From: an uncultured Verrucomicrobiae bacterium
GTDB lineage: Bacteria; Verrucomicrobiota; Verrucomicrobiia; Chthoniobacterales; JAATET01
Direction: 5' to 3'
NCBI GenBank assembly: GCA_963719495.1
Contig: CAVRCI010000006.1
Location: 1-64,000, forward strand
Length of the DNA: 64,000 bases
Shown: positions 10,934 to 39,861 of the stretch, piece by piece
How positions within the stretch are numbered: the stretch's first letter is position 1
Layout of the letters: every line of letters starts with the position of its first letter
Notes under the pieces: generated by a model
What the model saw: only the letters and a program-made list of their open reading frames with translations
Databases searched by the model: none
What the model was told of the DNA's origin: nothing
Position numbers and translations under genes: made by a program

Positions 10934-12298
10934 TCAAGATTCAGTGACGACCGCGTCTCCGAACAGCGTGGTGTTCGACCGGCCCACGACGTTCACGTCC
11001 ATCACCTGCCCGACGTGCCGCTCCGCCCCTTCGAACACGACGATCTTGTTCGTCCTCGTCCGTCCCATCAGGCGCTCTGCATTGTGCCGACTCTCGCCCT
11101 CGCAGAGAATTTCCATCCGCGACCCCACGCACGCCTCGAGCTTCCGCTCGACGTTCGCGTTGATCAACGCCAGCAAATCCTGGTTTCGACGCTCCTTCAC
11201 GTCCTCCTCGACCTGACCCGCCATCTCCGCCGCCGGCGTATCCTTGCGCTTCGAATACCGAAAAATAAACGCGTTATCGAAGTCCGCCTCCCGCGCCAGA
11301 TCACACGTCGCTGCGAAGTCCTCCTCCGTCTCGCCCGGGAATCCCACGATCACGTCCGTCGTCACCGCGATCCCCGGTCGCACCGCCCGCAATTGCCCGA
11401 CGAGCTCCAGAAACCGCTCCCGCGTGTAGGCCCGGTGCATGGCCTTCAGCAACCGGTTCGAACCCGACTGCACCGGCAAATGCACGTGCTCCATCAGCCG
11501 CGGCAGCCGCCCGAACGCCTCCACCAGATCGGTCCGAAACCCGATCGGATGCGGCGAAGTGAACCGCACCCGCTCCAGCCCCTCCACGCCGTGCACGGCC
11601 TCCAGCAACTGCACGAACGGACTCAACCCGCCGACCTTCGGGAACTCGTGCCTCCCGTAGAGATTCACGATCTGCCCCAGCAGCGTCACCTCGCGCACCC
11701 CGCCCGCGACCAGCCCGCGCACCTCCTCGACGATCTCCCCAATGGGCCGGGACCGCTCCGCCCCGCGCGTCGATGGCACGATGCAAAAGGTGCAGTGCAT
11801 GTTGCACCCCTGCATGATCGACACAAACGCCGTCGCCTGCCGCTCCTTCAGCGTGTGCTCGCGGATCGTGTTCTGCGATTCTTCCTCCTCCTCGACGTCG
11901 ACAATGGGCAGCCGCTCGTTGTCGATCCGCGCCTCGAAATTTCGGCGCAACAACTCGTCGACGTGATCCGCCACGCGGTGAAACTTTTGCGTTCCCACCA
12001 CCAGATCGACGTGCGGCGAGGTCTGGGTCAATTCCTCCCCGCGACTCTGCGCCATGCAGCCAAGGTAACCCAGGACCAGGTGCGGCCGGTCGCGCCGGAG
12101 TTTGCGCAGCATCCCCATCTTGCCGATGGCCTTCTGCTCCGCCATGTCGCGGACGCTGCAGGTATTTAAGAGGATCACGTCCGCGTCCGACTCGTCACCC
12201 GACAGCCGGTAACCCCGACTCTCGAAGGTGCGCGCCACCTGCTCGGAATCGCGCTCGTTCATCTGGCACCCGTAGGTTTTAATGTAGACACTCGGCAT
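10934..12298 (-). CDS. miaB: tRNA-i6A37 methylthiotransferase MiaB
   Basis: 454 aa with N-terminal MTTase motif (YIKTYGCQMNERDSE), radical-SAM cysteine triad (CNMHCTFCIVP) and a C-terminal TRAM region. Confidence 0.9.
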   Translation of the reverse strand: MPSVYIKTYGCQMNERDSEQVARTFESRGYRLSGDESDADVILLNTCSVRDMAEQKAIGKMGMLRKLRRDRPHLVLGYLGCMAQSRGEELTQTSPHVDLVVGTQKFHRVADHVDELLRRNFEARIDNERLPIVDVEEEEESQNTIREHTLKERQATAFVSIMQGCNMHCTFCIVPSTRGAERSRPIGEIVEEVRGLVAGGVREVTLLGQIVNLYGRHEFPKVGGLSPFVQLLEAVHGVEGLERVRFTSPHPIGFRTDLVEAFGRLPRLMEHVHLPVQSGSNRLLKAMHRAYTRERFLELVGQLRAVRPGIAVTTDVIVGFPGETEEDFAATCDLAREADFDNAFIFRYSKRKDTPAAEMAGQVEEDVKERRNQDLLALINANVERKLEACVGSRMEILCEGESRHNAERLMGRTRTNKIVVFEGAERHVGQVMDVNVVGRSNTTLFGDAVVTES

Positions 12299-20252: not shown

Positions 20253-20961
20253 TTACCACGAATACCCGTCGGACATTCCGTCGCGTCCGAGAAATTCGCC
20301 GGACTGTTCCGCACGGAGATGCGTGATCGTCTCGAAGAGAGCCGCCGCCGATTCTTCCGTGGTGATCTCCGCGTTCTCTCCTCCCATGTCGGTCTTCACC
20401 CAGCCGGGGCTGATCGGAGTCACGATGATTTGCTCCGGCCTCAATTCGGCGGCCATCCCTCGAGTCAGCATGTTCAACGCTGCCTTGGACACCGCGTAGG
20501 GGTAATAGGAAGAATCCTCCTTCTCGCTGATCGATCCCGCGCCGGACGAAATGTTCACGATCCGAGCAAAGTCGGATCGGCGGAGATTCGGTAAAAACGT
20601 CCGACTCACCCGGGCAACGCCAGCGACATTCGTCTCGATCGATTCGGCGAACCAATTCAGGTCGAGGGTCTCCAACGTCTCGTCGCCCTCGCCACAAAAG
20701 ATCGCCGCGTTGTTCACGAGGACGTCGAGCCGGCCGGTCGCCCAAAACCTCCGCCGCCCGCGCGAGGGTGCCACCATCGAGCACGTCGATCTCGATCGGA
20801 ACGAAGTTCGAAAATTGCCCTGCGGCCACGGTCATCGCCGGATCATCCGGCCGCCGAGCTCCGGCGTAAACGCGCCACTCCGCGCGCGCAAACGTCAGCG
20901 CGAGCGCATGGCCAATGCCGCGATTCGCGCCGGTGACAAGAACGGTTCGCGTGCCGCTCAT
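20253..20961 (-). CDS. Short-chain dehydrogenase/reductase (SDR), frameshifted near 20760
   Basis: N-terminus TVLVTGANRGIGHALA (Rossmann TGxxxGxG) lies in ORF 20170-20961. The catalytic YxxxK region (YPYAVSKAAL) and LVNNAAI lie in ORF 20253-20777. Confidence 0.7.
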
Positions 20962-22729: not shown

Positions 22730-22860
22730 GGGTCGACCATTCAATCCACCCGCCGACATCACGCAAGCGAGGAAATCCACATTCTCGGAAAGTGCTGAGA
22801 AAAAACCTCGGTTTTTGTAAATGCACAAACCGTCCTCCTCCCTCTAGTCTCCGCCTCGCC

Positions 22861-23511
22861 ATGAACGATCTGATCCACGCCGCACTCTTCCCGGTGAATC
22901 TCCCGTTCACCATCGTCCTCCTTGGACTCGCCGCCTATTGGATCCTCGTTAGCTTCGGCATCTTCGATCTGGACAGCAGCAGCGCCGACGGGGACATCGC
23001 GCTCGTCGACTCCGACGCCGATACCGACATTCACGACGTTCCCTTCAGCGGCTTCCTCCATTTTCTCAACGTCGGCGAAGTCCCGCTCCTCGTCATCGTC
23101 ACCGTCCTCACTCTCTCCATGTGGGTCTGCGGCCTGTTGGCAAATTTTTTCCTCAACCCAGCCGACAGCCTCCTCCTCGGTCTCGTCTACCTGATCCCCA
23201 GCTTCGCCGTCAGCGTGGTGGTCACCCGCTACACCACGATGCCGCTCCGCAGTGTCTTCCGGCTCCTCAACGCCCCCGAGCCCACCGACCGCACCCTGAT
23301 CGGACAGACCTGCATCGTCCGCACCCGCGAAGCCAACGCGACCTACGGCCAGGCCGAAGTCGCCTCCGACGGCGCCCCCCTCACCATTCAGGTCCGCACC
23401 CGCCCCGACGAAACCCTCCCGTCCGGCACCACTGCCCTGATCGTCAGCCAGGACGCCGACACCTCCGCCTACCTCATTCGCCCCGTCACCGCTTCCAATT
23501 TCGACCAATAA
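22861..23511 (+). CDS. NfeD/YqiJ-like membrane protein with C-terminal OB-fold
   Basis: N-terminal TM helices, then a beta-rich C-terminus (GQTCIVRTREANATYGQAEVASDGAPLTIQVRT). It sits directly upstream of the flotillin gene, the classic NfeD-SPFH pairing. Confidence 0.65.
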   Translation: MNDLIHAALFPVNLPFTIVLLGLAAYWILVSFGIFDLDSSSADGDIALVDSDADTDIHDVPFSGFLHFLNVGEVPLLVIVTVLTLSMWVCGLLANFFLNPADSLLLGLVYLIPSFAVSVVVTRYTTMPLRSVFRLLNAPEPTDRTLIGQTCIVRTREANATYGQAEVASDGAPLTIQVRTRPDETLPSGTTALIVSQDADTSAYLIRPVTASNFDQ

Positions 23512-23541
23512 CCAACCACCAAAACCCAACCAACACCACCC

Positions 23542-25545
23542 ATGGATTTCATCACCCCGCTCGCCATCCTCATCGGACTCTTCGTCCTCCTCATCATCTT
23601 CGGCTTCATGGTCATGATCATCCGGTGCTACCGGAAGGTTGACCAAGGCACCGCCCTCGTCCGCAATGGCATGGGCGGCACGAAAGTCTCCTTCTCCGGC
23701 ATTGTCGTCCTCCCGGTCATTCACAAAGCCGAGTTCATGGACATCTCGGTCAAGCGCGTCGAAATCGACCGCCACGGCCAGTTCGGATTGATCTGCAAAG
23801 ACAACATGCGCGCCGACATCAAGGTCGCCTTCTTCGTTCGCGTGAATCAGACCTCCCAGGACGTCCTCAAGGTCGCCCAATCCATCGGCTGCGTCCGCGC
23901 CTCCAGTCAGGAAGCCATGGTCGAACTCTTCGACGCGAAATTCTCCGAAGCCCTCAAAACCGTCGGCCGCCAATTCGATTTCGTCGAACTCTACAACTCC
24001 CGCGAACTCCTCAAGGACGACATCATCAAACTCATCGGCACCGACCTCAACGGCTTCGTCCTGGAAGACGTCGCCATCGATTACCTCGAGCAGACCCCGC
24101 TCAACCTCCTCAACGCCGACAACATCCTCGACTCCGAGGGCATCAAAAAAATCACCGAGCTCACCGCCGCGCAGAAAGTCCTCGCCAATAACATCGACCG
24201 CGAGCGTGAGAAAACCATCAAGCAACAGGACGTCGAAGCCCGCGAAGCCATTCTCGAACTCGAGCGTCAGCAAAAAGAAGCCGAGGAAAAACAGGCCCGC
24301 GAGATCGCCATCGTCACCGCCCGCGAGCAGGCCGAGTCCAAGAAAGTCCAGGCCGAGCAACTCCTCCGCTCCGAGCAGGCCCGCATCGCCGCCGAGGAAG
24401 AGATCGCCATCGCCGAGGAAAACAAGGCCCGCCAGGTCATCGTCGCCGCCCGCAACAAAGAGCGCACCGACGCCGTCGAGACCGAGCGCGTCGAGCGCGA
24501 CCGCATGGTCGAGCGCACCGAGCGCGAGCGCATCGTCGAACTCGCCGTCATCGAGAAAAACAAAGCCGTCGAGGCCGAACAAAAAGTCATCCAGGACGTC
24601 ATTCGCGAACGCCTCGTCGTCGAAAAAGCCGCCGTCGAAGAGCAGGAACGAATCAACGACACCCAGGCCTTCGCCGCCGCCGAGCGTCAGAAAAAGGTCC
24701 AGATCACCGAAGCCGAGATGCAGGCCGAGCAGTCACTGGTGAAAGACATCAAAGCCGCCGAAGCCTCCAAGAAAGCCGCCGAACTCCGCGCCCAGGAGGA
24801 CCTCTTCGCCAAGGTCACCAACGCCGAAGCCGAAAAGGAGTCCGCCGAGCTCCACGCCGAGGAAATCCTCATCGCCGCCGAAGCGCAACAAGCCGCCGCG
24901 ACCAAGCAAGCCCAGGCCCGCCGCACGCTCGCCGAAGCCACCAGCGCCGAAGAGGCCGCCCTCGGGCTGGCCGAGGCTCAGGTCATGGAGGCCAAAGCCG
25001 CCGCCGCCGAGAAGCAATACGCCGCCGAGGCCAAGGGTATCGCCGATAAGGCCGAGAGCATGAAAATGCTCGACGGCGTCGGCAAGGAGCACGAGGAGTT
25101 CAAGCTCCGCCTCGAGAAGGACAAGGAAGTCGAACTCGCGCACATCCACGTCCGCAAGGACATCGCCGAGCAGCAGGCCAACGTCCTCGGCGAGGCGCTC
25201 AAATACGCGAAGATCGACATCGTCGGCGGCGAGGCGCAGTTCTTCGATCGCATCACCAATGCGATCACCAACGGCAAGGCCATCGACCGCCTCGTCGACA
25301 ACAGCCGCACTCTCACCGACGTGAAGGACACCTTCTTCACCGGCGACGCCGACGATTTCCGCGAGCATCTGGACGACCTGATCAAAAAATTTGGGATCAA
25401 AACCGAAGACCTCAAAAACCTCACCATCGCCGCCGCCCTCGGCAAGCTCATCGCCCAAACCGACGACCTGGAGAAGCGCACCTTCCTCGGCAACCTCCTC
25501 CACCAGGCCAAAACCCTCGGCGTAGAGGGCGACCGCATGAACTAA
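23542..25545 (+). CDS. Flotillin-like SPFH/Band-7 protein (YqiK/FloT family)
   Basis: 667 aa with N-terminal TM and SPFH domain (YRKVDQGTALVRNGMGGTKVSFSGIVVLPVIHKAEFMDISVKRVEI), then a long EA-rich coiled coil and a conserved flotillin C-terminus. Confidence 0.85.
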   Translation: MDFITPLAILIGLFVLLIIFGFMVMIIRCYRKVDQGTALVRNGMGGTKVSFSGIVVLPVIHKAEFMDISVKRVEIDRHGQFGLICKDNMRADIKVAFFVRVNQTSQDVLKVAQSIGCVRASSQEAMVELFDAKFSEALKTVGRQFDFVELYNSRELLKDDIIKLIGTDLNGFVLEDVAIDYLEQTPLNLLNADNILDSEGIKKITELTAAQKVLANNIDREREKTIKQQDVEAREAILELERQQKEAEEKQAREIAIVTAREQAESKKVQAEQLLRSEQARIAAEEEIAIAEENKARQVIVAARNKERTDAVETERVERDRMVERTERERIVELAVIEKNKAVEAEQKVIQDVIRERLVVEKAAVEEQERINDTQAFAAAERQKKVQITEAEMQAEQSLVKDIKAAEASKKAAELRAQEDLFAKVTNAEAEKESAELHAEEILIAAEAQQAAATKQAQARRTLAEATSAEEAALGLAEAQVMEAKAAAAEKQYAAEAKGIADKAESMKMLDGVGKEHEEFKLRLEKDKEVELAHIHVRKDIAEQQANVLGEALKYAKIDIVGGEAQFFDRITNAITNGKAIDRLVDNSRTLTDVKDTFFTGDADDFREHLDDLIKKFGIKTEDLKNLTIAAALGKLIAQTDDLEKRTFLGNLLHQAKTLGVEGDRMN

Positions 25546-25572
25546 GGAGTGGCGACATCTTGTCGCCAACAA
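25546..25572. repeat. 27-bp palindrome-containing direct repeat, left copy (GGAGTGGCGACATCTTGTCGCCAACAA)
   Basis: 7-bp stem GGCGACA / TGTCGCC with 3-nt loop, immediately after the flotillin stop. A near-identical copy lies at 26319-26345 after vapC. Confidence 0.6.
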
Positions 25573-25590
25573 GGAGCTTTACGCGCGTTT

Positions 25591-25618
25591 TTGACATCAA
25601 ACCTCCATCGCTATAAAT
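25591..25618 (+). promoter_or_regulatory. Sigma70-like promoter for the vapBC cassette
   Basis: TTGACA at ~25591-25596, 15-16 nt spacer, then TATAAAT at ~25612-25618, about 10 nt upstream of the vapB ATG. Confidence 0.4.
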
Positions 25619-25626
25619 TCTCCATC

Positions 25627-25869
25627 ATGACGAAAACCCAAATTCAACTCCCCGAAGACCTCTACAACCGGGTGAAAGACTTCGCCCGCGAGCGCGAATG
25701 GTCCCTCGCCGAAACCTTCCGCCGTGGTGTCGAAGAACTCCTTCGACACTACCCCGCCAAGCCGCACGGCGGCACGCGATTGGCATCCGCCAAAAGGACA
25801 AAATCTTGGATGCAAGCCGATGTCCGAAGCCGAGCTGAAGCGCCACGCGCAGGAGGATTTCGACTGACC
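25627..25869 (+). CDS. vapB: VapB-like ribbon-helix-helix antitoxin, C-terminus uncertain
   Basis: MTKTQIQLPEDLYNRVKDFAREREWSLAETFRRGVEELL is a typical RHH/CopG antitoxin N-terminus. An alternative frame ends ...MSEAELKRHAQEDFD* five nt before vapC, so a frameshift in the 3' part is possible. Confidence 0.5.
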
Positions 25870-25873
25870 GCTC

Positions 25874-26314
25874 ATGCTCGCCATCGACACAAACATTCTT
25901 TTTCACAGTTACAACGACGACTCTCACATTCACCAGACAGCCTACGAATGGGTGGACGGCATCGGCGGACGGGAGGACATCGTCATCTCCGAATTTGTTC
26001 TCGTCGAACTCTATCGACTCATCCGCAATCCGACGGTCATGGACAAACCGCTCTCACCGTCAGCCGCAGTCGCCGTGATCGCTTCCTACCGCTCCCACCC
26101 TCGCTGGCGCATCGCGGGATTTCCCACCCAATCCCGCGAACTCCACGACGAGCTCTACACCCGCATGGCGAAACCCACCATCGCCTACCGCCGCATCTAC
26201 GACACCCGTCTCGCGCTCAGCCTCCTAGCCGCTGGCGTCACCGAAATCGCCACGACCAACGTGAAAGACTTCAAGGACTTCGGATTCACCAAAGTCTGGA
26301 ACCCGCTCAAATAG
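25874..26314 (+). CDS. vapC: PIN-domain toxin VapC
   Basis: 146 aa. MLAIDTNILF has the first PIN acidic residue and EFVLVELYRL the second. TTNVKDFKDF has the C-terminal acidic residue. Confidence 0.8.
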   Translation: MLAIDTNILFHSYNDDSHIHQTAYEWVDGIGGREDIVISEFVLVELYRLIRNPTVMDKPLSPSAAVAVIASYRSHPRWRIAGFPTQSRELHDELYTRMAKPTIAYRRIYDTRLALSLLAAGVTEIATTNVKDFKDFGFTKVWNPLK

Positions 26315-26318
26315 CCCC

Positions 26319-26345
26319 GGAGTGGCGACATCCTGTCGCCAACAA
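26319..26345. repeat. 27-bp palindrome-containing direct repeat, right copy (GGAGTGGCGACATCCTGTCGCCAACAA)
   Basis: Matches 25546-25572 at 26 of 27 nt. It lies between the vapC stop and the start of the giant ATPase gene. Confidence 0.6.
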
Positions 26346-26377
26346 CCAAAGGCACAGCCTGAAATCACCTCACGAAA

Positions 26378-29300
26378 ATGCCGGACCCCACTCCCACCCC
26401 ACCAGAGGCCACCACCCTCGAATCCGGCACCTACGAGATCCTCCGCCAACGTCTCACCGACCACGGCACGGACCTCCGCACCCGGCTCGAGTCGCTCAAT
26501 ACCGCCCGCCACGAGGTCTTCGGGTCCATCGAGACCGCCCTCGTCGCCACCGACCGGATCACCACCGAAAACAACTGCCTCCCCCGCGACCTCGTTGCCA
26601 TCGGTGCCAACCGCTTCCTCTTCGGTTACAACGTCAAACTCGGCCTCCGCACCGAGACCAAGCTCGCCGACGTGTTCTCCGCCTACGAGTGGAGCGACCG
26701 CGCCTTCCACCCCGTCGCGCTCGATTTCCTCGAGACTTCCGAATTCCTCACCGACTTCCGCAGCCTCTTTAAATACTACCGCGAGACCGTCTTCGCGAAG
26801 TTCGGCTTCATCGGGCCGCACCTCTTCATGGTCTTCCGCGTCGGTCAGCGCACCGAGGACATCAAGACCTTCAAATGGGCGCTCGACCACGGCAAATTCA
26901 CCTACCTCGGCAACCGCAGCGACCACGAATTCGTCTTCCCACCCCAGCACGAATTCACCTGGACCCGGACGCACCGCGACGCCCACCGGTCGGGCAGCCA
27001 CCCCCACATCTCCGTCGACGATCGTCTCTTCGTCGAGTGCACCGGCGGCGACCTCACCATCAAGATCGAGGACAACACCACCACCGGCACCGGCATCCAC
27101 AGCGAGCCCGTCGAGCAGGCCGACCAGACCCTCGACGACGCCGAGATCTTCTACGCCACCCTCGGCAACCTGATTCTCCTCAAAATTCGTCCCTACCAGG
27201 AAAAGGCCCACCGCTACTTCGTCTTCAACGACAAACTCGATCAAGTCCACCGCATCGACGCCATCGAAGAAAGCTGCGTCCTCCTGCCCGACGACCACGG
27301 CATCATCTTCTCCCGCGGCTACTACCTCCGCAATGGCGAGCTCCGCCTCTTCGACGGCAACGACACCGACATGCTCTTCGAACGCCGGATCCAATCGCCC
27401 AACCGCGAGGATTTTCTCTACGTTTTCTACAACCGCCAGCGCGGCGACTACATCCTGATGGCCTACAACGTCATCTCCCAGCGCGTGGAAACCCCCATCC
27501 ACTGCAACGGCTTCTCAACCTTCGAAAACGGCGAGCTCGCCCTCTTCCGCACCGACCCCGAGCCGCAAAAACACCACGCCGTCCAGATCTGGCAAACCCC
27601 CTTCACCGGTCCCGCCTTCGAGACCGCCACCCAGACCGACAGCTACCTCTACAAAATCGGCAACGCCGCCCTCGTCCGCACGATGGCCGAGTGCCAGGAA
27701 ATCCTCGCCCTGCTCGAACGCGACGATTCCTACGCCGGTCTCTACCACGACCTGCAGAAGCGTTCCGGCGACCTCCTCGACGCCACGTTCTGGCTCGACC
27801 GCGAAGAAACCCATCATCTCGACAAGCCCCTCGCCGCCCTCCGGGACGCCGCCGCCCGGACCGTCGACGAATACGAAAAAGTCCGCGACCTCCGCCGCCA
27901 CGCCACCGCCGAGATCGAGCGCGTCGGCACCACCGCCCGCTCGCTCCTCGACGAACTCCTCCCCGGCGAACTCGACACCATCGACGCCTACGTCGCGGCC
28001 CTGACCCAACTCCGCACCACCCGCGGCGAGCTGATTACGCTGCGCGATCTCCGCTACGCCGACCTCCCCGCCATCGACGAGCTGGAACGGGCGGTCACCG
28101 AAAAATCCGAAACCCTCTCCGCCGACTGCGTCCAATTTCTCCTCACCGACACCGCCCTCGAACCCTACCGTCAGCGCACCACCGAGCTCGAAAGCGCCTC
28201 CGCCGAGATCACCAAGGTCGTCGAAGGCCGCGAGCTCGAGCAACGCATCGAGCAGGGCGGCACCGAACTCGAACTCCTCATCGAGATCGTCAGCAATCTC
28301 GACATCGCCGACGCCACCGAGACCACCCGCATCGTCGAGAGCATCTCCGCCATCTACGCGAGCCTCAACCAGACCCTCGCCCGCCTCCGGCAACGCATTC
28401 GCGAACTCCAGACCACCGAAGGCGCCGCCCAGTTCGCCGCCCAGCTCCGCCTTGTTAGCCAAGCTGTGGCGAACTCTCTCGAGCGCTGCGACACCCCCGC
28501 GAAGTGCGACGAATTCCTCGGCCGCCTCATGGTTCAGGTCGAAGAACTCGAAAGCCGCTTCGCCGGATTCGACGACTACCTCATCGACCTCGCCGAGAAA
28601 CGGACCGAAATCCAATCCGCCTTCGAGAGCAAGAAGCTCGCCCTCATCGACGCCCGCAACCGCCGCGCCACCGCTCTCCAATCCGTCGCCGACCGGCTCC
28701 TCAAGAGCATCGCCCACCGCGTCGGCACCCTCGATGACGTCTCCGCCATCAACGCCTTCTACGCCAGCGACCAGATGGTCGACCGCCTCCGCGACGTCGT
28801 CACCCAGCTCCTCGACCTCGGCGACCCCGTCAAATCCGACGATCTCCAGGGCCGTCTCAAGACAATCCGCGAAGACGCCGTCCGCCAACTTCGCGACCGC
28901 AAGGAACTCTTCGTCGGCGGCGGCGACGTGATCGCTTTCGGCGAGCACCACTTCAACGTCAACGTCCAACCCGTCGAGCTGACCGTCCTCCAGCGCGACG
29001 ACCACCTCGCCCTCCACCTCACCGGCACCCGACTCTTCGAAACCGTCGAAGACGAGGAGATCAATCAACTCCAACCCGTCTGGTCGCTCGAAGTGGTCTC
29101 CGAGAGCCCGAGCGTCTATCGCGCCGAATACCTCGCCCACCAGGCGCTCGGTGAGTTGGACGACGTCACCGCCGAGGCCGTCGCCGCCTTCATGGCTCCA
29201 CGCTACGCCGAGGGTTACGTCAAAGGCGTCCACGACCACGATGCCACCCTCATCCTCACCGCGCTGGCCGGGATTCACCACTCCATCGGTACCCTCCGCA

Positions 29301-31348
29301 CCCACCCCGAGGCCCGCGCCCTTGCCGTGACCGCCTGGGAACTCCACCCCGACGAGGACCTCCGGAATCAACTCGCCAGCTTCGGTGCCGCCCGCACTCT
29401 CTTCCCGATCGTGGACGCCCAGCCCGGCTACCTCGCCCGGCTGGAGTCGATTTGCCGCAAGGTCGATTTCTTTCCAGCCGCCCGCGTCCCCGAAGCCGCC
29501 GCCTACCTCTTCGACGTCCTCACCGCAGACGGGGCCTTCGCCTTCAGCCACGACGCCTACTCCGCCTACGACGCCTTCGGCAAATCGCTCGCCGAACAGC
29601 ACGCCGCCGACCGATTTGCCGCGCTCCGCGAACCGCTCCGCGACGACTTCGTCCGCCACTTCGAACTCCTACGCGATTGGGTCGGCGGCTTCCTTGCCGC
29701 CACCGATCCCGCCCGCGCGCGCTACCGCGACGAAGTCGTCCTCCTCCTTCTCCGCGACCTCCACAACCGCAAGGACGTCCAACCCATCTCGCTCCAGACC
29801 GAGATAAAAGGCCTCCTCGGCCAGCACCCGCGCGTCGACGGTGGCACCCTCACGCTCGACTACCTCGATTTCACCGACCGCCTCCGCCGTCACCAGACGG
29901 AGACCGCCCCCGCCTTCACCGAATTCCAAGCCGCCAAACGCCGCCTCGTCGAGACCGCCCAGCGCCGCCTCCGCACCGAAGAATTCAAACCCCGCGTCCT
30001 TTCGTCCTTTGTCCGCAACCAACTCGTCGACAAAGTCTTTCTCCCGCTCATCGGTGCGAATCTCGCCAAGCAAATGGGCACCGCCGGCGAGAACACCCGC
30101 ACCGACCGCATGGGGTTGCTTCTCCTCATCTCCCCGCCCGGCTACGGCAAGACCACGCTCATGGAATACGTCGCCGACCGCCTCGGCGTCGTCTTCATGA
30201 AGATCAACGGCCCCTCACTCGGCCACGAAGTCACCAACCTCGACCCCGAACAAGCCCCGAACTCCGCCGCCCGCGAGGAGCTCAAAAAACTCAATCTCGC
30301 CTTCGAGATGGGCGACAACGTCATGATCTATCTGGACGACATCCAGCACTGCGCGCCCGAGTTGCTGCAGAAATTCATCTCCCTCTGCGACGGCCAACGC
30401 CGCATCGAAGGCGTCCACAACGGCGTCGCCCGCACCTATGACCTGCGCGGGCGCAAGGTCGCCGTCGTCATGGCCGGCAACCCCTACACCGAGAGCGGCG
30501 AGAAATTCCGCATCCCCGACATGCTTTCCAACCGCGCCGACACCTACAACCTCGGCGACCTCGCCACCGGCGCGCACCTCGACGCCTTCAAGCTCAGCTA
30601 CCTCGAGAACGCGCTGACCTCCAATCCGATCCTCAACGGCCTCGCCACCAAGAGCCGTCCCGACATCCTCGGCGTCATCAAAATCGCGCAGACCGGAGCC
30701 ACCGACACCGTCGCGCTCGAGGCCAGCTACTCTCCCCGCGAACTGGAAGACCTCGTGGCCGTGATGAAAAAGCTCATCCGCATTCGCGACGTCATCCTCA
30801 CCGTCAACAGCGCCTACATCGCCTCCGCCGGCCAGGCCGACGCCTACCGCACCGAGCCGCCATTTTTGCTTCAGGGTTCCTATCGCAACATGAACCGCCT
30901 CGCGGAAAAGATCGTCCCCGTGATGAACGATGCCGAGCTGGAAGCGCTCATCGCGGACCACTACCGCAACGAAGCCCAGACGCTGACGACTGGCGCCGAG
31001 GCCAACCTCCTCAAGCTCCGCGAACTCCTCGGCAAATTGACGCCCGAGGAAAAGACGCGCTGGGAGGAGATTAAGAAAACGTTCACCCGCAACCTGCTGG
31101 TCGCGGGCGGCGACGACAACGACCCCGTCTCCCAGGTCGTCCGCCAGCTCTCCAGCATCCAGGCGACCATCCAGGCCGCCGCCGACAAACCCGCGCCAGC
31201 GTCCGCATCGCCAGGTCTCGGCAGCGCCACCGGAAAACGAGTCGCCATCAACCCCGACACCCTCCGCAAAATCTGGGACTTGATCGAAAACCAGGACGCG
31301 ACCGACGCCCCGGAGACCGACACCATCATCGAAGTCCCCGAGCGCTGA
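26378..31348 (+). CDS. Giant (1656 aa) uncharacterised protein with C-terminal MoxR/McrB/dynein-like AAA+ ATPase domain
   Basis: Single uninterrupted ORF. Walker A LLISPPGYGKTTLMEYVADRLG (~aa 1225), Walker B VMIYLDDIQH and sensor region VAVVMAGNPYTESGEKFRIPDMLSNRADTY. There is a beta-rich N-terminal ~430 aa and a long helical middle region. It lies downstream of the nfeD-like and flotillin genes on the same strand. Confidence 0.7.
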   Translation: MPDPTPTPPEATTLESGTYEILRQRLTDHGTDLRTRLESLNTARHEVFGSIETALVATDRITTENNCLPRDLVAIGANRFLFGYNVKLGLRTETKLADVFSAYEWSDRAFHPVALDFLETSEFLTDFRSLFKYYRETVFAKFGFIGPHLFMVFRVGQRTEDIKTFKWALDHGKFTYLGNRSDHEFVFPPQHEFTWTRTHRDAHRSGSHPHISVDDRLFVECTGGDLTIKIEDNTTTGTGIHSEPVEQADQTLDDAEIFYATLGNLILLKIRPYQEKAHRYFVFNDKLDQVHRIDAIEESCVLLPDDHGIIFSRGYYLRNGELRLFDGNDTDMLFERRIQSPNREDFLYVFYNRQRGDYILMAYNVISQRVETPIHCNGFSTFENGELALFRTDPEPQKHHAVQIWQTPFTGPAFETATQTDSYLYKIGNAALVRTMAECQEILALLERDDSYAGLYHDLQKRSGDLLDATFWLDREETHHLDKPLAALRDAAARTVDEYEKVRDLRRHATAEIERVGTTARSLLDELLPGELDTIDAYVAALTQLRTTRGELITLRDLRYADLPAIDELERAVTEKSETLSADCVQFLLTDTALEPYRQRTTELESASAEITKVVEGRELEQRIEQGGTELELLIEIVSNLDIADATETTRIVESISAIYASLNQTLARLRQRIRELQTTEGAAQFAAQLRLVSQAVANSLERCDTPAKCDEFLGRLMVQVEELESRFAGFDDYLIDLAEKRTEIQSAFESKKLALIDARNRRATALQSVADRLLKSIAHRVGTLDDVSAINAFYASDQMVDRLRDVVTQLLDLGDPVKSDDLQGRLKTIREDAVRQLRDRKELFVGGGDVIAFGEHHFNVNVQPVELTVLQRDDHLALHLTGTRLFETVEDEEINQLQPVWSLEVVSESPSVYRAEYLAHQALGELDDVTAEAVAAFMAPRYAEGYVKGVHDHDATLILTALAGIHHSIGTLRTHPEARALAVTAWELHPDEDLRNQLASFGAARTLFPIVDAQPGYLARLESICRKVDFFPAARVPEAAAYLFDVLTADGAFAFSHDAYSAYDAFGKSLAEQHAADRFAALREPLRDDFVRHFELLRDWVGGFLAATDPARARYRDEVVLLLLRDLHNRKDVQPISLQTEIKGLLGQHPRVDGGTLTLDYLDFTDRLRRHQTETAPAFTEFQAAKRRLVETAQRRLRTEEFKPRVLSSFVRNQLVDKVFLPLIGANLAKQMGTAGENTRTDRMGLLLLISPPGYGKTTLMEYVADRLGVVFMKINGPSLGHEVTNLDPEQAPNSAAREELKKLNLAFEMGDNVMIYLDDIQHCAPELLQKFISLCDGQRRIEGVHNGVARTYDLRGRKVAVVMAGNPYTESGEKFRIPDMLSNRADTYNLGDLATGAHLDAFKLSYLENALTSNPILNGLATKSRPDILGVIKIAQTGATDTVALEASYSPRELEDLVAVMKKLIRIRDVILTVNSAYIASAGQADAYRTEPPFLLQGSYRNMNRLAEKIVPVMNDAELEALIADHYRNEAQTLTTGAEANLLKLRELLGKLTPEEKTRWEEIKKTFTRNLLVAGGDDNDPVSQVVRQLSSIQATIQAAADKPAPASASPGLGSATGKRVAINPDTLRKIWDLIENQDATDAPETDTIIEVPER

Positions 31349-31501
31349 CCCGCCAAAAATTTCTTCCTGATTTGCCCGCGAACAACGCGAATAGCGCAAA
31401 TCAATCAACCCGGAGGGACGGCATCCTGCCGTCCAATCGAACTCAAGACCTCGCCTTCACCTTCATCCATTCGCGCCCATCCGCGCAATTCGCGGGCTCC
31501 C
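30639..31501. repeat. ~865-bp direct repeat, copy 1 (3' end of the giant ATPase gene plus ~150 bp downstream)
   Basis: About 95% identical by eye to 33271-34135. Covers the last ~235 codons of the gene plus the downstream hairpin region. Confidence 0.8.
31416..31434 (+). terminator. GC-rich hairpin downstream of the giant ATPase gene (GGACGGCA-TCC-TGCCGTCC)
   Basis: Perfect 8-bp stem with 3-nt loop, ~65 nt after the stop and preceded by GGAGG. It has the same architecture as the vapBC-flanking hairpins. No U tract follows, so its terminator function is uncertain. Confidence 0.3.
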
Positions 31502-31602
31502 GAATCTATTCTCGAAGCCGATTACACGACGGCAACAAAACAACCACGCCTCGTGTGAATATCTCCATCGACCTCATTAACGCGTCGCGTAAATGTGAAT
31601 TC

Positions 31603-31800
31603 GTGATTCAAGGATTCGCGTGCAAGGATACGAAAATTGCCTTCGGAGAGACTCGCACCCGCAAGCTCCCCGGGAATCTACAGCCGGTGATGCTGCGCAA
31701 GTATGTGATGCTCAACATCGCCACGCAACTCGAAAGACCTCCAGTGCCGACCGGGAATCGTCTTGAGGCGCTCAAAGGTAATCGCGAGGGGCAACACAGC
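31603..31800 (+). pseudogene. higB: HigB-like toxin (RelE/ParE superfamily, plasmid maintenance system killer family), orphan and probably decayed
   Basis: From a GTG start: IQGFACKDTKIAFGETRTRKLPGNLQPVMLRKYVMLNIATQLERPPVPTGNRLEALKGNREGQHSIRV. This matches the HigB consensus (...FxCxxTexLF...RKLxMLdaA...L...PGNRLEALkGdRaGQhSIRiNdQWRicF) up to SIRV. The conserved NDQWRICF...VEIVDYH tail is not recovered in any frame and no higA follows. Confidence 0.45.
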
Positions 31801-31979
31801 ATCCGCGTCCTGCCTCGCAATCCAGCATCAGTCGGGCGGCAAGGCGATTGCGAAAAGCAGACAGTCACGAAATCAGCAAGTCGGAACAGCTTCTGCACAT
31901 ATGCTCTGACGATCCCTCCCTCTTCGCTTGAAACTACTCGGACTCTTGGCGGTGCCGCTGCTTAATCTCGGCGAGATAA

Positions 31980-32360
31980 TCAAGATCCGACTGCTTGAGC
32001 GACGGAACTTTCAAGCAGTGGGATAGTCACTGCTGGATACCCGGCTCTGGAGCTCAAACCGTAAATGTGCTCTCTCAGAAACGGATACAAAATATAAGGA
32101 GCAACTTTATCTGCCCAAAGATCTAATTTTTCAACAGGGAACAGCGTGGTATTCACCTTAAACTGACCTACTAGCTCGACTAAAAGGTAGAAGGGTAGAT
32201 TAGCAAAATCTTCTTCTACGCCAATCTCTCCCCGAAGGAATACATGTATCGTGTTCGAACTAGGATCCAAATCCGAATGCCTGTCACCCATTCGAAAGTC
32301 GTCTTCGTTGATATTCAGGTCACTCTTTCCCCGCTTGGTAGCAACAAAGCGGACGGTCAC
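31980..32360 (-). CDS. Hypothetical protein (cassette gene 3)
   Basis: 126-aa ORF in the low-GC segment, where an ORF of this length is unlikely by chance. No recognisable motif. Confidence 0.35.
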   Translation of the reverse strand: MTVRFVATKRGKSDLNINEDDFRMGDRHSDLDPSSNTIHVFLRGEIGVEEDFANLPFYLLVELVGQFKVNTTLFPVEKLDLWADKVAPYILYPFLREHIYGLSSRAGYPAVTIPLLESSVAQAVGS

Positions 32361-32430
32361 GCGGTGATACCCAATTTAATGAGATTGGGTGGATGGAAAC
32401 TGTAGAATCGGACACGCTCAATTCTAAAAA

Positions 32431-32691
32431 TCAGGCCGCAAGAGCCAAATCCTCGTGGTCGAACGGAAGGCAATTTAGGCGAAACGTCGATGGAGAAGCC
32501 TCATTGAAGAAAACCTCTTCGAGGTTGCCCTGAATATCCACGGGAATGACGACCGTGCTCGACCCGCGGAGGTCAAAATCAGGAGCGCAGGCACACTCCT
32601 CGCGTGCAGATTCAAGCAGCGCTACCATTGCCTCATCCGTTGCCGAACCGAGAAAGTTATCGACGATCTCTGAAATGTTGATGGTTTCCAT
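32431..32691 (-). CDS. Hypothetical small acidic protein (cassette gene 2, immunity/antitoxin-like)
   Basis: 86 aa, rich in Asp/Glu. Starts 7 nt downstream of the cassette gene 1 stop on the same strand. Confidence 0.35.
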   Translation of the reverse strand: METINISEIVDNFLGSATDEAMVALLESAREECACAPDFDLRGSSTVVIPVDIQGNLEEVFFNEASPSTFRLNCLPFDHEDLALAA

Positions 32692-32697
32692 AGCTTG

Positions 32698-33201
32698 TTA
32701 CATGCCATTATAGCTCATGATAACGTTTTGAACACAATCAAGATTACGAACGCATATGATTATGCGGGTGTGTCGGACAAATTGAGACTCAGGAGACAAA
32801 TTTCTTGGATGGTTCGGGTATTGCACCGCACGCACGCTGTCAAGCCGCCCAAGATTTGCTACCATAGTAACGGCTTGCTTGTCGGTCACAACGATCTTAA
32901 ATTTTTCGGAATACGCTTTGATCAGTTTCTGGACTTCGTCTGCGTGCTCAGAAATTGTTAGGTCCAAGCAGAATCCCAGTTGCACGGTCGCTCGTAGAAC
33001 AGCGATCTTATTCTGCTTGTAGCGTTTTCGAGCCCACCACTTCACCATTGCTTCCGACCCCTCCCAGAAGTAAACGCCAGAAGCGCGAAGCCCATCGGTC
33101 TTCTTGAAGGTATCTTTTATGATTCGCTCTCCAAGGTCCCGTGAGGTGCCATGAAAAGCGTCAGGAATCTCCTTGGATGACCGACTGATGAAGGTGGGCA
33201 T
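32698..33201 (-). CDS. Hypothetical protein (cassette gene 1, candidate toxin/effector)
   Basis: 167-aa ORF in low-GC DNA. A TTGACA-containing putative promoter lies in the ~60 bp between its start and the repeat boundary. Weak, unverified resemblance to RES-domain toxins in the segment GLRASGVYFWEGSEAMVKW. Confidence 0.45.
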   Translation of the reverse strand: MPTFISRSSKEIPDAFHGTSRDLGERIIKDTFKKTDGLRASGVYFWEGSEAMVKWWARKRYKQNKIAVLRATVQLGFCLDLTISEHADEVQKLIKAYSEKFKIVVTDKQAVTMVANLGRLDSVRAVQYPNHPRNLSPESQFVRHTRIIICVRNLDCVQNVIMSYNGM

Positions 33202-33270
33202 TGGGGCAAACGGAAGGATGGTGATCTAGGGACACGGAGGTTGTCAACTTGACATTGCTCAGAGGAACGA

Positions 33271-34135
33271 GCCTCGTCACCAAGAGCCGGCCCGACATCC
33301 TCGGCGTCATCAAAATCGCGCAGACCGGGACCACCGACACCGTCACGCTCGAGGCCAGCTACTCACCCGCGAATTGGAAGACCTCGTGGCCGTGATGAAA
33401 AAGCTCATCCGCATCCGCGACGTCATCCTCACCGTCAACAGCGCCTACATCGCCTCCGCCGGCCAGGCCGACGCCTACCGCACCGAGCCGCCGTTTTTGC
33501 TCCAGGGTTCCTATCGCAACATGAACCGCCTCGCGGAAAAGATCGTCCCCGTGATGAACGATGCCGAGCTCGAAGCGCTCATCGCCGACCACTACCGCAA
33601 CGAAGCCCAGACGCTCACCACCGGAGCCGAAGCCAACCTCCTCAAGCTCCGCGAGCTCCTCGGCAAATTGACGCCCGAGGAAAAGACGCGCTGGGAGGAG
33701 ATCAAGAAAACGTTCACCCGCAACCTGCTGGTCGCGGGCGGCGACGACAACGACCCCGTCACCCAGGTCATCCGCCAACTCTCCAGCATCCAGGCGACCA
33801 TCCAGGCCGCTGCCTAAAAACCCGCGCCAGCGTCCGCGCCGCCAGCCCTCGGCAACGCAGGCGGCAATCGAGTCGCCATCAACCCCGACACCCTCCGCAA
33901 GATCTGGGACTTGATCGAAAACCAGGACGCGACCGACGCCCCGGCCACCGACACCATCATCGAAGTCCCCGAGCGCTGACCCGCCAAGAATTTCTTCCTG
34001 ATTTGCCCGCGAATTACGAATAGCGCGAAACAATCAGCGCGGAGGGACGGCATCCTGCTGTTCCCAATAGCGTTCGGGTCCCTGCCTTCGACGCCCTCCC
34101 CCCTTCGCGCTCATTCGCGCAATTCGCGGGCTCCC
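33271..34135. repeat. ~865-bp direct repeat, copy 2
   Basis: See copy 1. Both copies end at ...cattcgcgcaattcgcgggctccc. Confidence 0.8.
33279..33978 (+). pseudogene. Degenerate duplicate of the 3' end of the giant ATPase gene
   Basis: Aligns to 30647-31348. A 1-nt deletion (ctactcacccgcgaattgg vs ctactctccccgcgaactgg) shifts the frame. A premature TAA (gccgctgcctaaaaaccc vs gccgccgccgacaaaccc) also occurs. ORF 33374-33817 encodes a near-identical 147-aa segment. Confidence 0.75.
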
Positions 34136-34280
34136 TGCATTTCTCACCACGATAGGACCGCGACTTGCTCGTTCGTTTTCATATATCGAATTTGATAAAT
34201 TCATCTATTGGAAGAAAAATACCCAGCCCCCTACGATCACCGCCGTCACCCAACCAACCAACACTCAACCGACTCACTTC

Positions 34281-35243
34281 ATGGATTTCCTGACCTCACT
34301 TTTCAACCCCGGCGTTCTTTTTTTTCTACTGGGTTTTATCGCCGTAATGCTCAACTCGAACCTCGAGTTGCCGGAGCCCATCGTGAAGTTCGTCAGCTTC
34401 TACCTGATGCTCTCCATCGGGTTTAAGGGCGGAGTCAGCCTCTCCGAATCTTCCCTCTGGGGGGATGGCATTCTCATGATCGTCATCGTGCTCGTGATGA
34501 GTGCCATCGTGCCGATCTACGCGTACTTTTTCTTCCGCAAGCGGCTGGGGATCGCGGACGCCGCGGCCATCGGAGCGACTTACGGCTCGAACAGCACCCT
34601 GACCTACATCACGGCGGCGGGTTTTCTGACTTCGATCGGCGTGGCCTACGAGGGCTACATGACGGTTGCCCTTGTGGTGATGGAGACGCCGGCCATCGTG
34701 TTTGCGGTGGTGATGGCCCAGATCGCGATGAAGGGCGGGGCCAAAAAGCCGACCGGATTAGTCGTCCGCGAGGCGCTGACCGACGGCACGTTGCTCCTCA
34801 TGGTCGGCAGCATGGTCATCGGCTACGTGTTGAGCCTGATGGGAACCGAAGAGACGCCGCTGGCGTCGTTCATCGGCGGGGACATGTTCACCGGGATGCT
34901 CGTCTTCTTCCTCCTCTACATGGGGATCGCGGTCGGACGAAAATTCAAGGAGATCGAGTCGTTCTCGCCGGTGCTCGTCGTTTTCGCCATCGTCGCCCCG
35001 TTGCTCAACGCCGCGATCGCGATCTCGGCCTGCAAGTTCTTCGGATTTGCCCCCGGCGATTCGCTCCTCCTGACGATTCTCTGCGCATCGTCGTCCTACA
35101 TCGTCGCTCCCGCGATTCTGAAAGACACCCTGCCTGAAGCCAATCCGGCCAATTATCTCACGATGAGCATCGGAATCACGTTTCCGCTGAACATTGTGAT
35201 CGGTATCCCGCTCTACTGGTGGGTCATCCAAAACTGGGTGTAG
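34281..35243 (+). CDS. SbtA-like (DUF897) sodium-dependent bicarbonate transporter family permease
   Basis: 320 aa, about 10 TM segments. The overall pattern (MDFLTSLFNPGVLFFLLGF..., GGDMFTGMLVFFLLYMGIAVG) is typical of the SbtA family. No PII-like SbtB gene is recognisable downstream. Confidence 0.65.
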   Translation: MDFLTSLFNPGVLFFLLGFIAVMLNSNLELPEPIVKFVSFYLMLSIGFKGGVSLSESSLWGDGILMIVIVLVMSAIVPIYAYFFFRKRLGIADAAAIGATYGSNSTLTYITAAGFLTSIGVAYEGYMTVALVVMETPAIVFAVVMAQIAMKGGAKKPTGLVVREALTDGTLLLMVGSMVIGYVLSLMGTEETPLASFIGGDMFTGMLVFFLLYMGIAVGRKFKEIESFSPVLVVFAIVAPLLNAAIAISACKFFGFAPGDSLLLTILCASSSYIVAPAILKDTLPEANPANYLTMSIGITFPLNIVIGIPLYWWVIQNWV

Positions 35244-36898: not shown

Positions 36899-39039
36899 TT
36901 AGTCGTCGAGCGACCCGGGCGCGGGCGTGGCAGCCGGGGTGACCGGCTTTTCCCGCGTGATCACGATTCGCTTCACGCGCGACCGATTGCCCGAAGCATC
37001 GAGAGCGACGATGCGAACCGGGTTGCGACCCGGATCCAGGCGAAGCCGGAAGCGCCAGTTGCGCGTGCCGTTGGCTTCTTTGAACTTCTCACCCTTCTCC
37101 TTCACGAGCACCTGCGTGACGGTCGTGTCATCAATCGCCTTGCCACGAAGCATGAACCGGCTCCGAGCGTCGCGAACCGTCTTTTTCCGGCTGATCTTTT
37201 TGGTTACCACGCGGGGCCTGGTCGTGTCAGGTGCGATCACAACCGGGGGCGCCACCGGCAACACCGCGAGCGAGAACCCGTTCACCGGCGTGAATCCCAC
37301 CGGGAATGTCCCGATTGGCGTGCTGAGCCGGCCCGTCTGGAGATCGATCGTATTTAGGGTGTAGATCCCAGTCCCGCCCGCATCGACGGTGACGTAGCCT
37401 ACGTTGTAACCGCCGAAAGACAGGATATCGAAGCCCGAGTTGGCGTCGACATTGCTCCCCAAGGCACCCACCGCCAGGGAATCCCCGGCATTGGCAGAAG
37501 GCGAAGTGAGCAGCCGGTCGGCAGAGGCATCGAGGTAGAAGAGTCGCGTCGGGGTGACCGCCGCTCCCATTCGACCCGTGTCGCTGTTGGTGTAGGCCGC
37601 TCCACTGACTCCCGTGACGGTCGTTCCCGCAATGTTGATGTCACCATCAACGCTGGCGACGCCCCCGGTCTGATCATTCAGCCGCAGATTTGTCCCCCCG
37701 TCATCGACGAGTCGGACGCGGATGCTTCCGTCGGATTGAACGGTGGTCGGGTTGAAGTCGAAGCCAAACTGCGAAGCCGGGTCGACGCTGTAGGTCGCCA
37801 ACATGGGAACGACGTTGTCCGTATTCGGGAAACCAGCTCCGACGTTGGTCACCCCACCAGTCGAGATGTTGACCAGACCGAGTTGGGAAGCGGCGGCTCC
37901 GACCGATATCGAGAAGAGGTTGAACGTGCCGGGTCGGAAATCGAGCCCCTTCACGTCAGTGCCATTACCCGCGGGCCCAATGGGCGTGACGGCGGCGGGA
38001 TTCGTCAGTGGGAACGAGAACAGCTGGCCAGTCGCGTTGTAGGCGTATCCGGTCGCACCAGCTGGCGGGGTCAACTCCGGTGCCTCGACGATGGCAAAAC
38101 CATTGATCGGTTCGAAACCAGCGGGAAAATTGCCGAAGGAAGCCGAAACGCCCGCAGTTGGAGCCGCGATGTCACCGCCTCCGTCGACGCCTCCGTCGAT
38201 CACCGCATCCAGATCGGGAATGGTCCGGAGTTGGAAGGTCGCTCCGTTATCCTCGGAGGTGACGAGGTAGGCAAAATTGTTCCCCCCGCCCCCCGCGACG
38301 TTGCCGGTCGGCGAATAGATTTCCATGCCGCCCGCAGGACTGATGTCGATCCCCAAGGCCCCAGCGGCTCCGGATGTTACCGCCATTCGGGTTCGTCGAC
38401 CGGATCAGGACGTCGTTGTTAGCGTCGAGGTAGAAGAGCGCGGTGGGTGCGGTGGCCGTGCCAGCGCGCTCCGCGTCAGAGTTCGAGTAAGCTGCCGCAG
38501 CGAGCGACACGCCCGCCGGGGTGTCGCCGCCATTCGATCCGACGACGCCATCAACGTTGCTGACGGTGCCGTTGGCCGTCGTGAATCGGAAGTTGCTGCC
38601 GGCTGAATCGACCAGCCGGAACCGGCTGCTGCCATCCCCCTGTAGAGTGACGGGGTTGAAATTGAATCCGTATCCCATCGCCAACGGACTGATGGTGTAA
38701 GGATTCGCGTCGCCGGCGGTCCCGGAGTTCGGAATGGCTGGCCCGACGGCGGTCCGGACGCCGGTCGTTGGATTGACCGTAAAAATTTGGGTCGTCGTCG
38801 CGGTGATATCGACCGCGTAGATCGTCGACGTCCCCGGTCGGACGTCAATGCCCTTGGTGTTCGCTCCAGCCGTGGCTGGACCGATCGGGACCACTGAAGA
38901 CGGATTTGTCAAATCGAACGCAAAGAGCTGCCCGGTGGCATTGTAAGCGTAGCCGTAAGGCCGCGCGTCCGCCGAGGCGACGGCCAGGCCGATGAGCCCC
39001 GCTGCGATGGCGAAGACTGAAGAGGTAGTTAGTTTCATA
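36899..39039 (-). CDS. Secreted protein with two DUF4394-like repeats and C-terminal basic region, frameshifted near 38250-38400
   Basis: Signal peptide MKLTTSSVFAIAAGLIGLAVASA. The motif YAYNATGQLF(A/S)F(D/P)LTNP...GIDVRPG / GLDFRPG...LFYLDA repeats in two ORF pieces (39039-38247 and 38386-36899). The DUF4394 family call is from memory. Confidence 0.55.
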
Positions 39040-39334
39040 GGGTTTTTGGGGTCACTGATTAGAATTAATTTGGGTCGATTGACTCTTTCGCGGAGTGGTT
39101 CGCCGCGCCCGACGACCCGGATCAATTTATCTTCCCCGTTCCAGAAATTCTCGGTCGGAGTTCGAACCTTCCCAATCAGGAGGTGAATCGATTCGCGGGC
39201 GAGTGAGTCAATATTCTGCTGAATTCTGGTAAGCGAGGGGCGCAAGATTTCGCAGAGCGGCAGGGCATCGAACGATGCGGAGCCCACGGCAATTTTCAGT
39301 GCGCTTGATGCAATCAACGGTAGGCAGTCGGTGT

Positions 39335-39515
39335 CATCCGTTTCTCCCACCTCCCTCGGATCGTCACGCAGGTGGAATAATTCCCCCCACGCGCGCCCCA
39401 GATAAGCCGTGAGCTTGTAACGCTCGGTCACCACCGTCCGCAGATGAAAGGCCTCCGCGGTGTGGTGATTTTTGACGATCACGTGATCCCGCGCCGTTGT
39501 CCACGCCCCTACCAC
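39335..39515 (-). pseudogene. Sulfatase C-terminal fragment (gene remnant)
   Basis: HVIVKNHHTAEAFHLRTVVTERYKLTAYLGRAWGELFHLRDDPREVGE matches the conserved C-terminal sulfatase tail (...YKL...ELYDLxxDPxExxN). No upstream sulfatase body is present. It is fused in frame to the upstream region of the DUF4394 gene. Confidence 0.4.

Positions 39516-39787: not shown

Positions 39788-39861
<74 letters not shown>

Follow-up and report, generated by a model that had tools for sequence, protein, structure and literature searches.

In a stretch of 64,000 nucleotides from an uncultured Verrucomicrobiae bacterium (contig CAVRCI010000006.1 of assembly GCA_963719495.1, positions 1 to 64,000; hereafter the window), the 3′ end of a gene encoding a giant ATPase is present twice, as direct repeats that flank 1,769 bp of new DNA with a low guanine-plus-cytosine (GC) content. 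We found that the upstream repeat continues the ATPase gene in frame and that the downstream repeat is detached and silent. The pattern of differences between them shows that the two copies come from different lineages and diverged while both were functional. The insert between them carries what its sequence points to as a divergent toxin–antitoxin–chaperone cassette of the CmdTAC (PD-T4-9) type, together with a dead higB toxin gene. We propose that this structure is the scar of a homology-driven insertion, with the single crossover of a small circle as the favoured route, and we give this proposal about an even chance of being correct.

A repeat finder and a MAFFT alignment placed copy A at 30639-31501 (863 nt) and copy B at 33271-34135 (865 nt), both on the plus strand, and recovered exactly the coordinates given in an initial annotation of this DNA. 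Copy A consists of the in-frame 3′ end (30639-31348, the last 710 nt) of the intact 1,656-amino-acid (aa) open reading frame (ORF) at 26378-31348, followed by 153 nt of 3′ non-coding sequence that includes a hairpin. Copy B is a detached 3′ fragment of the same gene with its own copy of the structured tail at 34005-34131. The initial annotation had put the identity of the copies at about 95%. This holds for the coding part (94.6%; substitutions affect 38 positions, and copy B has a single 1-nt deletion), but the 153-nt non-coding tail is only about 80% identical (31 differing columns), and overall identity is about 92%. RNA folding and the ORF itself bear out its description of the first repeat as the intact end of the gene plus a hairpin, and the damage it described in the second repeat is likewise present: 1 nt is deleted after 33364, and a premature TAA stands at 33815-33817, where two substitutions within one codon changed GAC to TAA. 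Copy A is the functional gene end and copy B a displaced, silent and damaged fragment, and this is the layout, as the initial annotation had it, that results when an inserted element brings along or encounters a second gene 3′ end. The longest identical run between the copies is internal and 77 nt long. Words of 18 and 22 nt taken from the repeat occur at these two places only in the window, where none would be expected, and the length of the repeat, some 860 nt, makes a chance origin impossible. A scan of metagenomes with a 21-mer from the right end of the repeat returned two contigs that had no further similarity to the window, and we regard these as chance matches.

The differences between the copies speak to how they came to lie side by side. 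Third codon positions account for 24 of the 38 coding substitutions. The Nei–Gojobori method gave a synonymous divergence (dS) of 0.145 and a non-synonymous divergence (dN) of 0.026, a ratio of 0.18, and the encoded proteins differ by 14 amino acids and one stop codon. Within a conserved core of 386 nt (30744-31129), the copies differ at 12 synonymous and 0 non-synonymous sites. These values bear directly on an alternative in which the gene end was duplicated in tandem where it lies, copy B decayed over a long time and the islet was captured at the joint. The stop codon and the 1-nt deletion would suit such a history, as would a slight excess of derived first- and second-position changes in copy B over copy A, but about three quarters of the changes in a neutral copy B would be non-synonymous, far from the observed ratio, and the core shows none in 12. 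Indeed, if just half of the core's 12 changes had fallen on a neutral branch, the probability that all of them were synonymous would be about 0.236^6 = 2e-4. Duplication in place would also need an extra step to put foreign DNA exactly at the joint. We rejected it on the dN/dS ratio and the core, and we leave it almost no chance. By the same two observations, the copies are alleles that diverged as working genes in two lineages and came together later.

Polarization of the substitutions agreed with this picture. We used two outgroups: L087, which belongs with L084 to one Chthoniobacterales metagenome-assembled genome (MAG) and is the closer of the two (88% nucleotide identity in the giant gene), and the more distant L001, the nearest species representative, which is an uncultured Verrucomicrobiae MAG. 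With L087 as the outgroup, derived changes fell on both branches and mainly at third positions on each: the branch to copy A has 7 at third and 5 at first positions, and the branch to copy B has 10 at third, 4 at first and 3 at second positions. The two copies are also alike in their distance to the outgroups (85.5% and 84.9%). When L001 served as the outgroup, copy B looked markedly more decayed, but L087 largely erased that asymmetry, and we therefore claim no long neutral decay of copy B. Its decay since the joining amounts to little beyond the stop codon and perhaps the 1-nt deletion.

We next consider the edges of the insertion. On the right, the homology ends (at 31501 in copy A and 34135 in copy B) 4 nt past a structured element of about 125 nt that follows the stop codon of the giant gene (31374-31497, plus strand; RNA fold z = -2.6). 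It is closed by a stem of 9 bp, GCCCGCGAA/TTCGCGGGC, inside which lies an 8-bp hairpin, GGACGGCA-TCC-TGCCGTCC. Stem and hairpin are identical in the two copies, and the remaining tail is about 20% diverged. The right edge is the natural end of the gene unit in both lineages. At gathering thresholds Rfam contained no family for the structured tail, its sole match being a tRNA-Gly at 39790-39861, and neither L087 nor L001 has the element behind its orthologue of the gene. On the left, at the joint 33270/33271, the 69-nt leader of the toxin gene described below runs into the interior of the giant gene, and the only sequence shared by the left edges is AACG, offset by one extra A. This joint is illegitimate.

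In the course of events that we favour, the donor would have been a closely related lineage, about 5% diverged in the gene, whose DNA carried the last 0.86 kb of the gene with the structured tail and, adjoining this gene end, the foreign low-GC islet. Entry would have been by host homologous recombination within the shared gene end, most simply if a small circle, 2.6 kb or more in size, integrated by one crossover of the Campbell type. Copy A would then have stayed fused to the gene and kept it intact, and the other end, now copy B, would have been pushed 2.6 kb downstream as a promoterless fragment in which decay has begun. The second junction, at 33270/33271, would be an illegitimate join of the cassette leader to an internal gene position, near the 4-nt AACG match. 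A single crossover with a gene copy on the incoming DNA was one of the routes offered in the initial annotation, and it fits the allelic pattern seen in the dN/dS ratio and in the core.

The low-GC insert (31502-33270) has a GC content of 0.499, compared with about 0.63 for the genome, 0.627 for the whole window and 0.629 and 0.637 for the two repeat copies, which confirms the compositional drop reported earlier. It showed no similarity to any related giant-gene locus that we compared, and by its composition the DNA appears to be foreign. Its first recognizable feature, at 31603-31809 on the plus strand, is a higB remnant (higB′) that corresponds to the first two thirds of a RelE/HigB-type toxin (Pfam PF05015, E = 1.9e-6, profile positions 14-68 of 91) and is broken off after about codon 68 of about 91, beyond which the frame no longer yields a meaningful sequence. 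No higA partner lies beside it in the insert, and higB′ is a dead remnant. Its truncation, at about 31809, implies that at least one deletion removed further DNA from the islet.

The rest of the cargo is a minus-strand operon of three tightly packed genes, encoding a toxin, an 86-aa protein and a SecB-like chaperone. A search of the insert against defence-system hidden Markov models (HMMs), which the initial annotation had suggested as a check, identified the operon as a cassette of the CmdTAC/PD-T4-9 type through its toxin gene (32698-33201, an intact ORF of 167 aa), which matched the PADLOC model PD-T4-9_A with E = 1.5e-5. The toxin family is a large one, as an exhaustive search for relatives yielded 294 representative clusters at E values up to 0.001. 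Among 81 family members that we aligned, H17, Y44 and F45 never vary and D121 hardly does, and 69 of the 81 match PD-T4-9_A, the best with E = 5.5e-17. Searched against the PDB, the family profile matched PARP catalytic domains only. An AlphaFold (AF2) model built from the 81-sequence alignment reached a predicted local distance difference test score (pLDDT) of 95.4, compared with 43 for an unusable single-sequence model, and its top fold matches were enzymes with the ADP-ribosyltransferase fold or related NAD+-utilizing enzymes (PARPs, NatT, MbcT, Tpt1 and exotoxin A, 1AER). Together, these data assign the toxin, on sequence and predicted fold, to the CmdT family of ADP-ribosyltransferases, with the HY-[EDQ] residues present.

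The middle gene (32431-32691, minus strand) encodes 86 aa, found no family match in HMM searches of Pfam and PADLOC, and is a candidate antitoxin by its position. The chaperone gene (31934-32421, minus strand) carries two +1 insertions as sequenced, one near 32336-32342 (GACCGTC) and the other near 32010-32013 (GAAAG), and removal of both restores a full-length product of 161 aa. The repaired protein weakly matched both SecB (PF02556, E = 1.3e-4, 22-23 bits, under the curated cut-off of 26 bits) and PD-T4-9_C (E = 8e-5). The only close homologue of the cassette lies on a 4.1-kb contig, L083, in the same order and with proteins of 168, 86 and 161 aa. Its middle protein is 59% identical to ours, and the intact 161-aa chaperone of L083 agrees with the chaperone gene in position and length. 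Used as a tblastn query, that homologue found the chaperone gene of the window in three frames, the middle piece at 76% identity. The L083 cassette adjoins Type ISP and Mrr restriction genes and is GC-poorer than its own surroundings; nothing relevant was found in a search for repeats around it. A palindrome, TGTCAA-C-TTGACA (33242-33254), can be read in the 69-nt toxin-gene leader and is a candidate operator and -35 box of the cassette. A consensus promoter scan did not flag it, and matches in a promoter and terminator scan of 31300-34320 were no commoner than in shuffled sequence. We conclude that the cargo is most probably a divergent CmdTAC/PD-T4-9-type cassette plus a dead higB; the cassette may still be active today.

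The nature of the cargo also bears on a second alternative, in which the structure would be all that is left of a prophage or a site-specific integrative island that targeted the 3′ region of the gene and later lost its integrase and most of its genome. A replacement end at attL and a displaced end at attR would give the same layout, and the truncated higB′ attests to an internal deletion. In addition, 46 viral or proviral contigs of IMG/VR (L089-L134) encode CmdT-family toxin relatives with 21-37% identity, which suggests that such cassettes are often borne by phages or prophages. The toxin of the window itself, however, found no match by tblastn in phage and plasmid collections, and no integrase gene or other recombinase domain was found among the ORFs of the insert or of the flanks scanned (about 17-48 kb). 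There is no short identical att core either: the homology extends over 863 nt, is 5-20% diverged throughout and continues for 153 nt past the stop codon. Nor does the arrangement recur, as in 80 other species no second C-terminal copy, cassette or sbtA (the gene that follows copy B here) was found within 10 kb of the ATPase gene, and no integrase or toxin–antitoxin (TA) family was among the 25 commonest downstream families in the 63 of these species that we scanned. We therefore did not retain the idea, raised in the initial annotation, of a family of islands that target this gene end, here with its integrase lost, and we think the remnant explanation rather improbable.

The surroundings of the gene in its relatives are relevant to the direction of the event. 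The ATPase has DUF3686 (PF12458, E = 6e-181), DUF7902 (PF25472, E = 4e-25) and AAA (PF00004, E = 2e-7) domains and is alone in its 90% cluster. We confirmed 539 relatives on genome contigs from Verrucomicrobiota, Bacteroidota, Planctomycetota and others, and the C terminus is conserved, with about 88% identity to another species. In 63 of 80 species, the ORFs downstream of the gene belong to 128 different Pfam families, mostly unrelated housekeeping genes. In L001, a gene for a PIN-domain (VapC-like) toxin (11519-11896, minus strand) ends 27 nt after the giant ATPase gene, probably with a small partner ORF upstream, and this is a different TA module in the same position. Given these neighbours, we rejected the notion that the downstream position is a general hot spot for TA modules or mobile elements; only L001 has a PIN toxin there. 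In L087 (6503-11827, MAG ERZ25039505), gene calling recovers just the C-terminal 608 aa of the giant gene and sets spurious genes on the opposite strand upstream of them; the giant gene is probably broken by frameshifts in the assembly.

Several observations weigh against our proposal. The closest readable relatives, which are 88% and 77% identical to the window at the nucleotide level within the gene, are syntenic with it up to the stop codon and no further and carry neither sbtA nor the cassette there, and we found no empty site and no donor arrangement among the readable relatives L087/L084 and L001. For this reason the direction of transfer and the crossover point in our proposal are tentative, and either side may be the newcomer, the cassette with the A allele or copy B with sbtA. 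The AACG match at the joint is short and offset by one A, and could be due to chance. The circular intermediate, like a role for RecA and the direction of transfer, is something that we infer from the arrangement. Finally, the structure is known from the sequence of a single assembly, in which the indels of the chaperone gene and of copy B could be sequencing errors and not decay.

The ambiguity of direction has a concrete form, in which the giant gene with the A allele and the islet were resident, and a linear fragment from a relative, starting within that relative's giant gene (the B allele) and extending past sbtA, was inserted by homology-facilitated illegitimate recombination (HFIR). The anchor would lie somewhere downstream, the left end would have been joined illegitimately at 33270/33271, and the duplication would be incidental. 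One HFIR event would be enough, with no circle, and the mechanism has been described (PMC5361080). The sbtA gene is non-syntenic in the nearest relative and aligns with L084 within the gene alone, and the VapC-like toxin 27 nt after the giant gene in L001 shows that TA modules can be resident at this position. On the other hand, it is the islet and not the sbtA side that is compositionally foreign (although DNA from a donor with 95% identity would not look foreign), and we identified neither a downstream anchor nor a right-hand junction. We consider this reversed order of events unlikely, yet credible enough to be kept in view alongside the single crossover that we favour.

Because the source is one 154-kb contig, from an uncultured organism, we also asked whether the structure might be an assembly artefact, namely a chimeric join of two strains, one supplying the A allele with the islet and the other the B allele with sbtA. 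The copies differ at the level of strains, and the assembly contains at least one probable indel error. However, the joint 33270/33271 offers an assembler no overlap, the copies are easily told apart given a longest identical run of 77 nt, and the stop codon of copy B took two substitutions, so that a strain with copy B alone would lack this conserved gene. A chimera is unlikely in our view, and we allow it a slight chance. The individual indels are less secure. A +1 indel at about 20730-20737, in a CCGGCCGG stretch, divides a short-chain dehydrogenase (adh_short) gene at 20256-20949, on the minus strand, between two frames. Its protein is 76-89% identical to the L087 orthologue. This could be either a very recent pseudogene or an indel error of the assembly. 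It is because of this frameshift, near 20733 in a well-conserved gene of the same assembly, that the indels of the chaperone gene and copy B may be errors, and the chaperone gene is possibly intact in reality. The background is about one indel per 11 kb of comparable sequence, and the three indels in 2.6 kb here exceed it.

The flanking genes on both sides were also examined. Upstream, the giant gene is the last of an operon (22792-31348) that is widespread and encodes, in order, a YqiJ_N protein, a 667-aa protein, an ORF of up to 407 aa and the DUF3686-DUF7902-AAA ATPase. About 395 nt of the 407-aa ORF coincide with the first part of the giant gene. The 667-aa protein had been labelled a flotillin in the initial annotation, but it matched nothing in Pfam or NCBIfam, and the label is not confirmed. 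Downstream, the next gene after copy B is sbtA (34281-35243, plus strand; PF05982, E = 1.5e-95), which encodes a member of the Na+-dependent bicarbonate transporter family. Its closest homologue, P0155, is 94% identical. In the alignment with L084 the gene itself is 85% identical at the nucleotide level and both flanks differ, which places it there in a different genomic context. Two adjacent DUF4394 genes follow on the minus strand (36899-39515), and then a tRNA-Gly(GCC) gene at 39789-39861 with no integrase next to it.

The finding is real, largely explained and a fairly ordinary example of the uptake of defence genes. It offers a clean, datable case of the way in which a small anti-phage cassette can reach a chromosome without a recombinase of its own, through homology to a conserved neighbouring gene, which remains intact while its former end persists as a fossil. 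In addition, a divergent ADP-ribosyltransferase system of the CmdTAC type is now placed in a verrucomicrobial lineage that is uncultured and Chthoniobacterales-like. If duplications of gene ends turn out to be common around defence islets, they would provide a simple signature of integrase-independent traffic of defence genes between close relatives, and each event could be dated, as the copies record both the divergence of donor and recipient and the decay since insertion.

A further suggestion, which we make only tentatively and think doubtful, is that the repeat and the cassette form an integrase-free mobile unit, in which the gene end serves as an attachment site or portable homology arm. 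Such a unit would be excised as a 2.63-kb circle by host recombination between the copies, and a single crossover would let it into any relative that possesses the conserved giant ATPase gene. C-terminal displacement of the Rhs type would then extend to defence cassettes on ordinary conserved genes. The TA cassette would make loss harmful and so stabilize the insert. Moreover, given the damage to copy B, a crossover that removes the cassette would in most cases inactivate the ATPase gene too, and only crossovers in the last 320 nt or so, downstream of the stop codon of copy B, would leave it intact.

We compared the cassette and its mode of entry with known systems. HigB toxins of the RelE family belong to type II higBA modules, and the remnant resembles them in that its N-terminal two thirds match PF05015; it differs in being truncated and in lacking higA. 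The operon is closest in design to CmdTAC of Escherichia coli ECOR22 (PMC11618068, PMC9519451), which comprises a toxin, a small antitoxin and a SecB-like chaperone in three genes, as the operon of the window appears to do. CmdTAC is the system listed as PD-T4-9, and mRNA is modified by its toxin, the HY-[EDQ] ADP-ribosyltransferase CmdT. The antitoxin CmdA, with its chaperone-addiction segment at the C terminus, restrains CmdT and needs the SecB-like chaperone CmdC to escape ClpP, and the system acts against phages by mRNA ADP-ribosylation once the antitoxin has been degraded (PMC11618068). The toxin of the window falls in the same HMM family, still has the H and Y, both invariant, of the HY-[EDQ] triad and has among its model matches exotoxin A (1AER), the reference used for CmdT. 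Unlike the ECOR22 system, the cassette described here is very divergent (E = 1.5e-5 for the toxin and 8e-5 for the chaperone, with the antitoxin unmatched), resides in a verrucomicrobial lineage, has a twice frameshifted chaperone gene and is known from sequence alone. These comparisons point to a new and distant member of the CmdTAC family.

For the insertion itself, element e14 and phage 21 provide one parallel. Both integrate at icd of E. coli and bring a phage-borne replacement for the 3′ end of the gene, with an integrase that acts on a short core and a replacement of about 0.16 kb. As at the ATPase locus, icd is kept intact by the incoming 3′ end, the original end becomes a pseudogene on the far side, and the two ends differ mainly at synonymous sites. 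In contrast to icd, the homology at the ATPase locus spans 0.86 kb and includes 153 nt of non-coding tail, with no integrase and no recurrence. The icd type of replacement end therefore seems a looser parallel than Campbell-type insertion and C-terminal displacement.

Displacement of the latter kind has been described for Rhs genes, for which the proposed route is that a circle bearing part of the conserved gene integrates by one crossover (Jackson et al. 2009, PMC2935791), and for type VI secretion system (T6SS) effector–immunity genes, for which a linear fragment with one homologous and one illegitimate end, that is, HFIR, was proposed (Kirchberger et al. 2017, PMC5361080). In these systems, as in the insertion that we propose, the incoming DNA consists of a conserved gene fragment with new downstream genes, and recombination takes place within the shared portion. 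Instead of being deleted, the resident 3′ end is moved downstream, where it lies silent behind a fragment of the conserved gene, and no integrase is involved. There are also differences: the gene described here is no polymorphic toxin and its C terminus is conserved, the cargo is a free-standing defence cassette instead of a new toxin tip with its immunity gene, and there is a single displaced copy, with no array and no recurrence in 80 species. By analogy with these systems, the duplication would be a known kind of scar, and what is a little unusual is an integrase-free defence cassette that rides on 0.86 kb of an ordinary, conserved, non-toxin gene.

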